Origin: Archaeoglobaceae archaeon
Lineage (GTDB): Archaea > Halobacteriota > Archaeoglobi > Archaeoglobales > Archaeoglobaceae
Length of the DNA: 15,395 nucleotides
Reading direction: 5' to 3'
Assembly: GCA_038893835.1 (NCBI GenBank)
Contig: JAWAQR010000027.1
Location: forward strand, 1 to 15,395
Below, in pieces: positions 2,096 through 4,598 of the stretch (its first letter is position 1; the number at the start of each line of letters is the position of its first letter). The translations under genes and the position numbers were made by a program. Under the pieces are notes generated by a model. That model searched no databases, had not been told where the DNA came from, and was given only the letters and a program-made list of their open reading frames with translations.

Positions 2096-2498
2096 AATAT
2101 TATTTTTTATAGCAAATTCATAAATCAAGACTTTTCAAAATCTCCATTCCAGATGGAATAAAACCATTTTTAGCAAACAGCTATTCGCCGAAACCGCAAA
2201 CTACAGATGGTGCATAAAGTCGAGCAACGAAGATCAGGCTACAAGAGATACTGCGACGAGATCATTTCTTTGCATTGAATTTTTTCATTCTGGGGACCAA
2301 TGGTTAAGAGTGGAACTCTAAAAACCCTTTAAGCAAAAATTATTCTGCCTTTTTGAAAAAAGCCGTATAATTTATTGCTTTTCGATTGAGGTTCAAAAAT
2401 CCAAGGTTAGAGCTTAAAAGAGGATCGCAGAAAGATAATTATGCAAAAGTCAAAAGATTTGGAATAGCTCAAATTGGTTAGGGGTAAAATCCTTTCAA

Positions 2499-2527
2499 CT
2501 TTCAATCCTTTTTAGTCTGATTTCAAC
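2499..2527 (-). CRISPR. Solitary CRISPR direct repeat (no array)
   Basis: Minus strand reads GTTGAAATCAGACTAAAAAGGATTGAAAG (29 nt). The Archaeoglobus fulgidus repeat as I recall it is GTTGAAATCAGACCAAAATGGGATTGAAAG, a difference of 2 substitutions and 1 deletion. The ATTGAAAG 8-nt handle is intact. No second repeat is visible at spacer distance on either side. Confidence 0.8.
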
Positions 2528-2700
2528 CTATGAATTCCCCTTTCTCAATTTAAAGGTTTTTATTTATATATTCCTGCAAATAATCTCTTTTAAAAAGCTT
2601 TTAAAGATCAGAGAAATTTCAGCGATAAGAATAAAAATATTAAAGCTCCAATTTGAAAAAGAAGAGTTTTAAGGGATTTGCTTAGAATACGGTTTGTGAT
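2528..2700 (-). promoter_or_regulatory. CRISPR leader-like AT-rich region with BRE/TATA elements
   Basis: Non-coding and directly 5' of the repeat in the crRNA orientation. Minus strand ends ...GGAATATATAAATAAAAACCTTTAAATTGAGAAAGGGGAATTCATAG|GTTGAAATC, with TATA-like boxes ~20-40 nt before the repeat. Contains a near-palindrome TTTAAAAAGCTTTTAAA (~2589-2605). Confidence 0.55.
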
Positions 2701-2957
2701 TGTTTTCCCCATACATTCTGCATCTTGCCTCAAAATTCGGAGTAAAAGCATATAATCAAAGAAATCTTAGAGAATAGTATTGCGAATCACACAAAAATAA
2801 TTTCTTGACGAGAGTCTTTCTCTAGAAACGATAGTTTACTGCTACCGCCTAAGCTAATTACATCCTCAAAAACTGTGCTAGCCTGTTTGGAAGTTAAAAG
2901 GTTGATGGACTTCTTTGGATAAAGTCAACTCCAAGGATGCTTGACTTGTTTACATAC

Positions 2958-2976
2958 AAAAATTAAAAAATAAAAA
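2958..2976 (-). terminator. Oligo-T terminator of the parA cassette
   Basis: Consecutive T runs on the minus strand (TTTTTATTTTTTAATTTTT) about 20 nt after the stop codon at 2994. Confidence 0.5.
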
Positions 2977-2993
2977 TTTAAACTTAACCTTAA

Positions 2994-3446
2994 CTATGTC
3001 ACTTGTTGGTTTTGTTCTTTAACAAATTTAACAAATTTCTTTAAAATATATTTATATTTAGATATGGTGCTATGTTTAATGGATTTCCCTGACATGTAGT
3101 TCTCGAGAAACTTTTCCGCACTCTCTTCATCAATCTCTAGCTTGTTTTCACGAATCCATGCAACAAATTTGTCGAGTAAATATTTATCTTTTTTACGCCA
3201 TCTATTATCAAGAAGTGCTTGCAGCTTTGTAACGATATCGGTCTCCTGTACTTCTTCTTTCTTAATGTGAGGTTGAGGTCTTAGGTCTGCAGACTGCTCA
3301 TAACCTATCTTCCAAGCTTCATAATAGTATTCTAATATATTTGCCAGCAGTTGACCTGGTGTCATCTTTAAAGTATTGCTGAACTCTATGAGCCATTCCG
3401 CAAGCCGTTTCGGCAATTCTATTTCAAGTTTACTCATCTCCACCAT
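2994..3446 (-). CDS. ParA partner: putative N-terminal ribbon-helix-helix domain plus C-terminal integrase SAM-like (core-binding) domain
   Basis: Starts directly after the parA stop (TAAATG). N-terminus KLEIELPKRLAEWLIEFSNTLKMTPGQLLANILEYYY fits an RHH pattern. C-terminus LLDKFVAWI...IDEESAEKFLENYMSGKSIKHSTISKYKYILKKFVKFV fits the Xer/integrase N-terminal helical bundle pattern. Confidence 0.6.
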   Translation of the reverse strand: MVEMSKLEIELPKRLAEWLIEFSNTLKMTPGQLLANILEYYYEAWKIGYEQSADLRPQPHIKKEEVQETDIVTKLQALLDNRWRKKDKYLLDKFVAWIRENKLEIDEESAEKFLENYMSGKSIKHSTISKYKYILKKFVKFVKEQNQQVT

Positions 3447-4307
3447 TTATTCCACACTCCTAAAGTCGTTCATTCGAGTTAAGACTTCGTTAGTAAAAGC
3501 TTCTGCATCCTGTTTGAGAGCATCATTGCTCCTCAAAGTTCTGTCGAGCGGTACTTCCCACCTTCTAGGTCTGTAAACGAGATCTGTTAACTCGCTGTGT
3601 TTATGAATGATAGTATCAAAAAGAGGTTTTCTGTATACGTTTCTGGTTATAGATGATGGTAATCCGCGAAGTATTTTAATGATGTCGTTCTTTACCTTTT
3701 CGAATCTTTCTTGCTTAATACGCCTATCTACCCTCACCATGACAATCCCAAGTACTTTTAGATTATGTTCATATAACATAACATCTGGAAGGACTTCTTT
3801 AAGGAGAAGTTTTACACCAAGTAAAGATAATTCCTCCATATTTGATGGTATTATTATATAATCGGCTGCATAAAGACCCCATAAAGTAGGTGGAAAGAGC
3901 TCCGGTGGAGTATCGCATACTACAAAGTCGTAGTGCCCAGTGATTGCTGGCTCTCTTGATATCCTTCTCTTAATAGCGTATTGGTCCCATGCTGGTATCC
4001 TTCCACGATATACATCTAGGATGTAGTTTAGTCCAGAAGGAACTAAACCGATCTTACCTTCAACGTTTAACTCAATTTTTTTAATATTAAATTTTTCATC
4101 TCTTGCCATCTCGAATGTTCCGTGATTGACCTTTTCTATATCATTTTGTTTTAAAAAGAGAGATGACAGATGTGCTTGGGGATCCAAATCTAACATCAGG
4201 ACATTGTATCCTTTACTTGCTAATCCATAGGATAACAGAGCTGTTAACGTAGTCTTACCCGTACCACCTTTTTGATTAGTTATAGTAATGACTTTTGGAA
4301 CTGGCAT
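3447..4307 (-). CDS. parA: ParA/Soj-family ATPase
   Basis: Deviant Walker A NQKGGTGKTT, A' motif LMLDLDPQAHLS, Walker B YDFVVCDTPP and ADYIIIP. No N-terminal HTH extension (type Ib/Soj-like). Confidence 0.92.
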   Translation of the reverse strand: MPVPKVITITNQKGGTGKTTLTALLSYGLASKGYNVLMLDLDPQAHLSSLFLKQNDIEKVNHGTFEMARDEKFNIKKIELNVEGKIGLVPSGLNYILDVYRGRIPAWDQYAIKRRISREPAITGHYDFVVCDTPPELFPPTLWGLYAADYIIIPSNMEELSLLGVKLLLKEVLPDVMLYEHNLKVLGIVMVRVDRRIKQERFEKVKNDIIKILRGLPSSITRNVYRKPLFDTIIHKHSELTDLVYRPRRWEVPLDRTLRSNDALKQDAEAFTNEVLTRMNDFRSVE

Positions 4308-4350
4308 TTCTCTTAAGTATAACTAATAACTTACACTTAAACTTTTTTAT
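4308..4350 (-). promoter_or_regulatory. Putative parA promoter (BRE + TATA, leaderless transcript)
   Basis: Minus strand AAAAAAG-TTTAAGTG (4334-4348) lies 26 nt before the ATG, with no obvious RBS. Confidence 0.5.
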
Positions 4351-4598
4351 TTTTATGATGTGCATAATTGCTGAGATTAGGTTTAAGGTCTCGAGCGATT
4401 GTTATCGATAGACAAGGAATAAAAGTTGTTGATAACCTTAGACCTCTTAGTCCAAGCATTCGGCATCTGCATGAGATAACCAATTTATCATTCTCTGCGC
4501 ATACGGAATCTGCATGTTAGAATCTGCTTTGATTTTTATTTACCAACTCAAAGTTGCATGCTAGTTAAATATCATCTTACTCCCAACTTTCTCAATAG

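Follow-up and report, generated by a model that had tools for sequence, protein, structure and literature searches.

A solitary degenerate CRISPR repeat behind a shortened leader in an Archaeoglobaceae genome, probably the remnant of a lost array

Genomic context of the locus

The DNA analysed here (the window) comprises 15,395 nucleotides and is the whole of contig C27 in an Archaeoglobaceae genome assembly of 1.17 Mb (35 contigs, 97.4% complete). It carries an A-type ATP synthase operon and genes for seryl-tRNA synthetase, a peptidase and tRNA-His, an ordinary chromosomal set. Among these genes lies a segment of approximately 2.1 kb (2466-4584) that holds a lone CRISPR repeat with its leader, an ORFan and a parA gene (Table 1). 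On neither side did the congeners compared, which are hot-spring Archaeoglobales MAGs, show an equivalent of it. The block to its left is syntenic with congener genomes, and right of position 4585, from the tRNA-His gene on, synteny with two of them (G005 and G017) resumes. The GC content of the segment is 34.9%, lower than in 99.4% of same-size windows, and its tetranucleotide usage is ordinary.

The partition ATPase is of the plasmid and phage kind, and its relatives in IMG/VR and on plasmids are at most 36% identical. The neighbouring 150-aa ORFan yielded weak matches only against Pfam and PHROG and none in IMG/VR, and a search of a large protein database returned the protein itself alone. 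No integrase, no viral genes and no att-like copy of the tRNA-His end were detected in the parA segment, and a plasmid search with positions 2455-2760 gave no match. In addition, a repeat of the family described below was absent from an IMG/VR search, from a consensus-pattern scan of viral_contigs and from 80 viral ParA loci. The segment 2466-4584 may be old mobile DNA. The stop codon of the ORF on the parA side lies 467 nt from the repeat, on the same strand, in agreement with the original prediction, which had placed the repeat about 470 nt downstream of the parA cassette and co-oriented with it.

To the left of the segment, positions 2096-2465 follow a gene for a 550-aa surface protein and show two gaps (of about 27 and 38 columns) relative to the congeners, in a stretch that looks coding there, and the block at about 2290-2440 appears more conserved than the surface-protein gene. 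From its alignment, the region 2096-2465 may consist of a decayed 3' end and a conserved non-coding element. A 54-nt element with a 7-bp stem was also seen at two intergenic sites, at 2896-2949 of the window and at C20:24875-24928 (L008), the two copies being 85% identical.

Table 1. Features of the locus and of a related remnant elsewhere in the genome. Positions refer to the window unless a contig is named.
Feature	Position	Strand	Basis or remark
Block syntenic with four congeners that lack the repeat there; left edge of the lineage-specific segment	2096-2465	.	Synteny; outside the relic
33 lineage-specific bases downstream of the repeat, originally proposed as a guide	2466-2498	-	No target found
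Solitary degenerate 29-nt CRISPR repeat	2499-2527	-	Sequence and comparison with congener arrays
ATTGAAAG, would-be 8-nt 5' tag of a processed RNA	2499-2506	-	Sequence; processing inferred
Shortened leader, homologous to the approximately 333-nt leader of congener arrays	2528-2664	-	Alignment upstream of first repeats
TATA-like box AATATATAAATAA kept from functional leaders	2560-2572	-	Alignment; putative promoter
Imperfect palindrome within the leader	2581-2618	-	95% identical copy on contig C18
150-aa ORFan upstream of the leader	2994-3446	-	No homologue in 40 relatives or a large protein database
ParA-type partition ATPase, accessory	3447-4307	-	No congener match at E<=1e-20
tRNA-His; right edge of the lineage-specific segment	4598-4670	-	Congener synteny resumes
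Second relic, distal half of the leader with a 17-nt repeat end	C21:49-165 (L006)		

A single repeat of the CRISPR type

The minus-strand sequence of the repeat is GTTGAAATCAGACTAAAAAGGATTGAAAG. Its position and strand, its intact ends and the confinement of changes to its middle had been predicted correctly, and it is the sole copy in the 1,169,739-base genome when up to six substitutions are allowed. Neither a full nor a partial repeat accompanies it within 100 bp, and local alignment against shuffled sequences revealed no second repeat-like stretch within 130 nt on either side: the best alignments downstream were equalled by 101 and 167 of 500 shuffles, and those upstream by 432 and 171 of 500. 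Scans of genome_contigs, metagenome_contigs and viral_contigs for the exact 29-mer returned no matches.

The arrays fetched from three congeners (G008, G013 and G019) have the consensus 30-nt repeat GTTGAAATCAGACCAAAATGGGATTGAAAG, from which a variant in G019 differs by two letters. Relative to this consensus the lone repeat carries the substitutions C14T and T19A and has one G deleted, all of them mid-repeat. The repeat together with the adjacent leader matches the array heads of the congeners with E values down to 4.9e-12, and the Rfam model CRISPR-DR6 scores 22 bits on the repeat, under the model cut-off of 39. On these sequence comparisons, the element at 2499-2527 is a real CRISPR-type repeat, far beyond chance.

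With all three changes in its centre, the repeat has retained both the Cas6-binding end and the tag. The tag that had been predicted for a processed RNA is correct by sequence and is identical to the final eight nucleotides of the resident 24-nt repeat on contig C10. The proposed guide fared less well, and the search for its targets, which the original prediction had recommended, yielded matches at chance level only: the 33-44 nt downstream of the repeat gave matches of at most 14 nt in the genome, where short partial matches are hard to exclude, and positions 2455-2498 gave chance matches to bacterial phages among phage records (best E 0.8).

A shortened leader in front of the repeat

The AT-rich stretch upstream of the repeat (24.6% GC), which had been described as leader-like on account of its composition and TATA boxes, proved to be a true leader homologue on the correct side of the repeat, with a conserved TATA-like box. 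When 40 related genomes were searched with positions 2096-2993, the congener arrays were matched through the repeat, and the array heads were matched both via the repeat with 2528-2562 and via 2581-2664. Compared with the leaders of these arrays, that of the window has suffered four deletions, by which about 141 of about 333 nt are gone, and one of which takes out a TATA-like stretch present in both functional leader lineages. The junction between leader and repeat is 2 nt shorter than in the congener arrays. The TATA-like box that is kept sits about 39 nt upstream of the repeat, and the 17-nt block CTTTAAATTGAGAAAGG immediately before the repeat is identical to that of the functional leaders.

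Among the array-bearing genomes the leaders are 92.5-97% identical over about 362 nt, above the identity of their DNA at an unrelated locus (82-92%). The window leader is 70-74% identical to these leaders over 222 aligned columns, and the gene that flanks it, at 77-83% identity to the same relatives, exceeds this value. No coding synteny upstream of the leaders is common to the window locus and the array loci of the relatives. As a separate observation, the 39-nt palindrome of the leader recurs with 95% identity at C18:4022-4060 (locus L007), directly behind a tRNA gene, and may act as a terminator-like element or as a binding site for a protein.

A further trace of the same leader family was found on contig C21, where positions 66-165 match leader positions 49-151 at 85% identity and are joined directly to the last 17 nt of the repeat. 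In the remaining 48 nt to the contig end no further repeat follows this half-repeat. Judging by its alignment, the unit looks like the product of a deletion between leader and repeat.

Resident CRISPR system and cognate cas genes

The original prediction had reported neither an array nor cas genes near the repeat, a statement that holds for the window and does not extend to the genome. Contig C10 (43862-44377, L005) carries an array of at least eight copies of a 24-nt repeat on the minus strand, which runs off the contig end; the final two spacers of this array duplicate an earlier pair, as an assembly loop or a duplication. The 24-nt repeat is present in none of 19 congeners, its exact sharing with the lone repeat is limited to the last 8 nt, and the array was probably acquired. 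Contig C5 (1-2782, L004) begins inside cmr4 and continues with cmr5, cmr6 and a csx1/TM1812-like gene, a partial type III-B module.

Cmr2 was not found in the assembly, and C5 begins within the cmr operon, so that half of this operon lies in an assembly gap. Because of this truncation and of the C10 array, which is cut off by its contig end, genes for Cas6, Cas1 or Cas2 could be hidden in unassembled DNA. Family searches of the genome, with its assembly gaps at the cas region, found no Cas1, Cas2, Cas6 (two models) or Cas7/DevR. Furthermore, a tblastx comparison of the genome with the type I-B island of congener G013 (cas4, cas1, cas3, cas5b, cas7, cas8b1 and cas6) gave no match; the genes flanking this island on both sides have orthologues in the genome.

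Measured against a canonical array, which has at least two direct repeats with spacers, a leader and promoter before the first repeat, and cognate cas genes, the locus holds one repeat copy, possesses the leader by homology and a putative promoter in the form of the TATA-like box, and lacks detectable cognate cas genes in a 97.4% complete assembly with gaps at the cas region.

Arrays in related genomes

Between 4 and 56 repeats were counted in each of the loci fetched from G008, G013 and G019. After the G013 array come cas4, cas1, a HepT-like gene, cas3, cas5b, cas7, cas8b1 and cas6, which constitute the type I-B island; the gene between cas1 and cas3 (L136:4306-4710, G013:C8) is of the HepT family of toxin-antitoxin RNases. 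Of the five genomes searched for Cas6, the three that have full arrays contained it, and it was not found in the two with a lone repeat. Cas1 was likewise present in three of five, but these were G013, G019 and G005 and not G008 or G017, and the correspondence between Cas1 and arrays is therefore imperfect.

The single-repeat state recurs in the genus. G017, which is another species, has a leader with one perfect repeat (L014/L128, a 4312-base contig), and three metagenome contigs of the same leader lineage (L139, L140 and L142) have two or three full repeats. Very short arrays, with perfect repeats in these cases, thus seem to be common in the genus; one-repeat states arise readily and are by themselves no proof that an array is dead.

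In one array of G019 (contig C10 of that genome; L030/L126, one array fetched twice) a degenerate unit directly follows the last good repeat with no spacer between them. This unit has CTAAAAA in common with the window repeat, followed by TTGAAAG as in the window. Such a terminal degenerate unit is absent at most array ends among the 16 loci scanned, which overlap and represent fewer distinct arrays. The likeness hints that the lone repeat could descend from a terminal degenerate repeat, which we regard as a lead. G013 shows a weak match to the repeat in its syntenic spacer region; 16 of 300 shuffles equalled this match, which is for that reason not counted as evidence.

Assembly and strain comparison

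The locus occurs in public sequencing runs, which are metagenomes of hot springs. Contigs from three of them, which belong to two studies and one of which is possibly the source sample, extend across the single repeat into unique flanks on both sides (X1, 2324-2655; X2, 2395-2655; X3, 2480-2655). The strain represented by X1 and X2 differs from the window at nine positions over 2324-3400 and at none within 2433-3008, a stretch for which p is about 0.001 if the differences are spread evenly (a post hoc value). Three of the differences fall in the 109 nt before this stretch and six in the 271 nt after it. The SNP-free stretch could reflect constraint or a recombination tract.

Origin of the lone repeat

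We consider the unit at 2499-2664 to be a decayed leader-repeat remnant of a lost ancestral CRISPR array, with a probability of about 0.68. The former array would have been of the 30-nt-repeat kind that stands beside the type I-B cas island in G013. In the present lineage this 30-nt-repeat/I-B system would have disappeared from the assembled genome, in which the 24-nt-repeat array and the type III-B module are found instead. The spacers and the other repeats would have been lost, probably through recombination between repeats, and the unit left behind would afterwards have gained point changes and deletions. Residual transcription from the surviving TATA-like box is possible, with no indication of a selected function.

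This reading is carried by the homology of the unit to the working leaders and repeats of relatives and by its decay in comparison with these working copies, visible in the loss of leader sequence, the drop in identity and the repeat's three changes. It is further backed by the cognate machinery that was not found in the assembly, by the resident 24-nt repeat that congeners lack, by the 29-mer without matches elsewhere, by the bridging contigs and by the Francisella precedent (PMC10120712). Erosion of 30-nt-repeat arrays in this genome is supported by the unit on C21, a second relic. A collapsed array had been named in the original prediction as the mundane alternative; it is now the favoured one in view of the worn, genus-typical leader and repeat, the I-B cas genes that were not found and the relic on C21. 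What speaks against a relic is that the repeat is better preserved than the leader: with the divergence of the leader taken as neutral, three or fewer changes in 30 positions have p = 0.01-0.03, and the location of all three within nine central positions has p = 0.027 (post hoc). The surviving TATA-like box and 17-nt block, the tag shared with the resident array, the SNP-free stretch between strains, the assembly gap at the cas region and the very short arrays of the genus also count against it.

The same preservation counts in favour of a working orphan crRNA-like RNA. Such an RNA would be transcribed from the kept promoter, cut by the Cas6 of the resident system 8 nt from the 3' end of the repeat and loaded into the type III-B complex via its AUUGAAAG tag, where it would serve as a guide or would tune the complex through harmless competition. 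As the resident array has an identical 8-nt tag, the III-B complex could in principle load this RNA; cmr4, cmr5, cmr6 and a csx1-like gene are present in the genome, the TATA-like box and both ends of the repeat have been preserved, and the repeat is better kept than the leader and lies in the SNP-free stretch between strains. However, neither the genome nor the phage records (best E 0.8) offered a match above chance level to the 33-44 nt downstream, there is no second repeat to set the 3' end, the body of the repeat is unlike the resident repeat beyond the tag, Cas6 was not found in the assembly, about 141 nt of the leader are gone, and the unit was not found outside this genome in the collections scanned; an orphan RNA is thus unlikely. 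We regard as quite unlikely the specific course of events in which type I-B was lost, the promoter-repeat unit was kept, and the tag now lets the acquired III-B complex load the transcript as an orphan guide or buffer. Within this scenario selection for reuse by III-B would have left its mark in the unharmed repeat ends and in the stretch without strain variation, and the scenario is kept alive by the TATA-like box, the repeat ends, the tag, the conservation of the repeat, the SNP-free stretch and the short arrays of the genus. Should the relic prove to supply the new effector, one CRISPR system would neatly be making use of a piece of another. A different regulatory role had also been suggested, that of CreA/CreR, names given to crRNA-like regulators with degenerate repeats. 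It is not borne out, as no second pseudo-repeat exists, the unit is outside a cas locus and the 33-44 nt downstream matched nothing in the genome or in phage records above chance level.

The context of the repeat raises the question of delivery by a mobile element, with the parA-ORFan segment as the leftover of a plasmid or virus whose leader-repeat mimic acted as an RNA anti-CRISPR against the type I-B system typical of the genus. Anti-CRISPRs that consist of a solitary repeat behind a promoter are known from mobile elements (PMC10651486), the segment 2466-4584 is without counterpart in the congeners compared, adjoins a tRNA gene and has a GC content (34.9%) below that of 99.4% of same-size windows, its ParA is accessory and of the plasmid and phage partition kind, and the neighbouring ORF is an ORFan. 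Yet the segment has neither an integrase nor an att-like copy of the tRNA end, and its tetranucleotide usage is ordinary; the repeat family was not found in IMG/VR, in the exact-pattern scan or at 80 viral ParA loci, nor did the plasmid search with 2455-2760 find a match. Moreover, a decoy would be expected to copy the consensus repeat and not a worn version of it, and the C21 relic occurs without a parA context. We hold this origin to be improbable, and the Racr or decoy proposed earlier lacks its main supports: a virus or plasmid copy of the repeat, an integrase and att bounds were not found, and the match to the resident repeat is confined to the last 8 nt.

Also improbable is an empty but usable array or landing pad, which would have been retained as the least that spacer uptake requires or as a site where recombination could restore an array. 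Arrays of the same leader family with one to three full, good repeats do exist, 10 bp of leader, one repeat and one spacer are sufficient for integration in vitro in the related Pyrococcus furiosus system (PMC6698737), and a role in recapture has been proposed for a Francisella remnant (PMC10120712). Against this, Cas1, Cas2 and Cas4 were not found in the assembly, the repeat is 29 and not 30 nt long with centre and junction changed, and junction and repeat centre are essential for accurate integration in P. furiosus (PMC6698737), a different organism that serves here as an analogy. The empty array primed for acquisition that the original prediction had envisaged is therefore unlikely, as Cas1 and Cas2 were not found (the cas region being partly unassembled) and changes affect both the leader junction and the middle of the repeat.

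An artefact, in which the assembler collapsed a multi-spacer array to one repeat, appears scarcely credible. Arrays often break or collapse in metagenome assemblies, and the C10 array of this very genome ends with a repeated spacer pair; nevertheless, the single repeat is spanned by independent contigs of three runs and two studies, evidence against a collapse, although a minority strain with spacers is possible, given that contigs drop rare variants. In addition, the degenerate variant was found nowhere else, and collapse of identical repeats would not yield it. On the evidence of the bridging contigs, the collapse during assembly that had been listed as a refuting possibility is improbable.

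All in all, the original interpretation is partly supported. In our view the lone repeat is most probably an ordinary relic rather than a regulator of a new type. Under this reading it documents the turnover of CRISPR systems in a genus of small-genome hot-spring Archaeoglobales, with at least two relics left in the genome. It also calls for caution: a lone repeat behind a promoter-like region mimics an RNA anti-CRISPR or a regulatory crRNA, and comparison with relatives reveals the worn head of an array.

Comparison with known systems

In the definition given by Camara-Wilpert et al. (2023, PMC10651486), Racrs are located on viruses or plasmids and mostly match the CRISPR subtype of the host itself. 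The window unit resembles the Racrs of that study in having one repeat with no partner within 100 nt, a promoter-like region and a position that is not beside cas genes (PMC10651486). It differs from them in that it lies on a chromosome contig where any mobile element is conjectural, and in that it matches a system which the host no longer shows (PMC10651486). The setting is a low-GC, lineage-specific segment with an accessory ParA and an ORFan, in which an integrase, att sites, viral genes and viral or plasmid copies were not found. The repeat also does not mimic that of the host, since the resident repeat is a different 24-mer in which the last 8 nt are alike, and the I-B system was not found.

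As a rule, the crRNA-like regulators and mini-arrays treated by Shmakov et al. (2023, PMC10120712) consist of a spacer between two repeat-like arms, occur within or next to cas loci and show a partial match to a target promoter. Regulators of this kind, CreA/CreR among them, and the window unit have in common a degenerate repeat that could give rise to a tagged small RNA. In contrast to them, a second arm, a position in a cas locus (the cmr genes are on C5) and a spacer partly complementary to a promoter target were not found here. As for adaptation, the minimal array integrated in vitro by the P. furiosus machinery, in which the junction and the A-rich repeat centre are essential (PMC6698737), shares with the window unit the arrangement of a leader and a single repeat and belongs to a related repeat family (Rfam CRISPR-DR6-like). 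The window unit departs from this minimal array in its repeat length and its altered centre and junction, and no Cas1-Cas2 was found to go with it.

A close parallel concerns a remnant. In Francisella, a degenerate repeat and a solitary repeat have been read as what remains of a lost V-A locus (Shmakov et al. 2023, PMC10120712), and here too a degenerate repeat stays where the cognate cas genes were not found. In contrast to the Francisella case as described there, none of the array loci of the compared congeners shows synteny with the relic locus, the leader survives beside the repeat, and the host has since gained another CRISPR system with the 8-nt tag in common (PMC10120712). With the lost-locus remnants of the same study (PMC10120712) the window shares the trait that a repeat-derived unit stays in one genome, and the homologous units of its relatives head full arrays.
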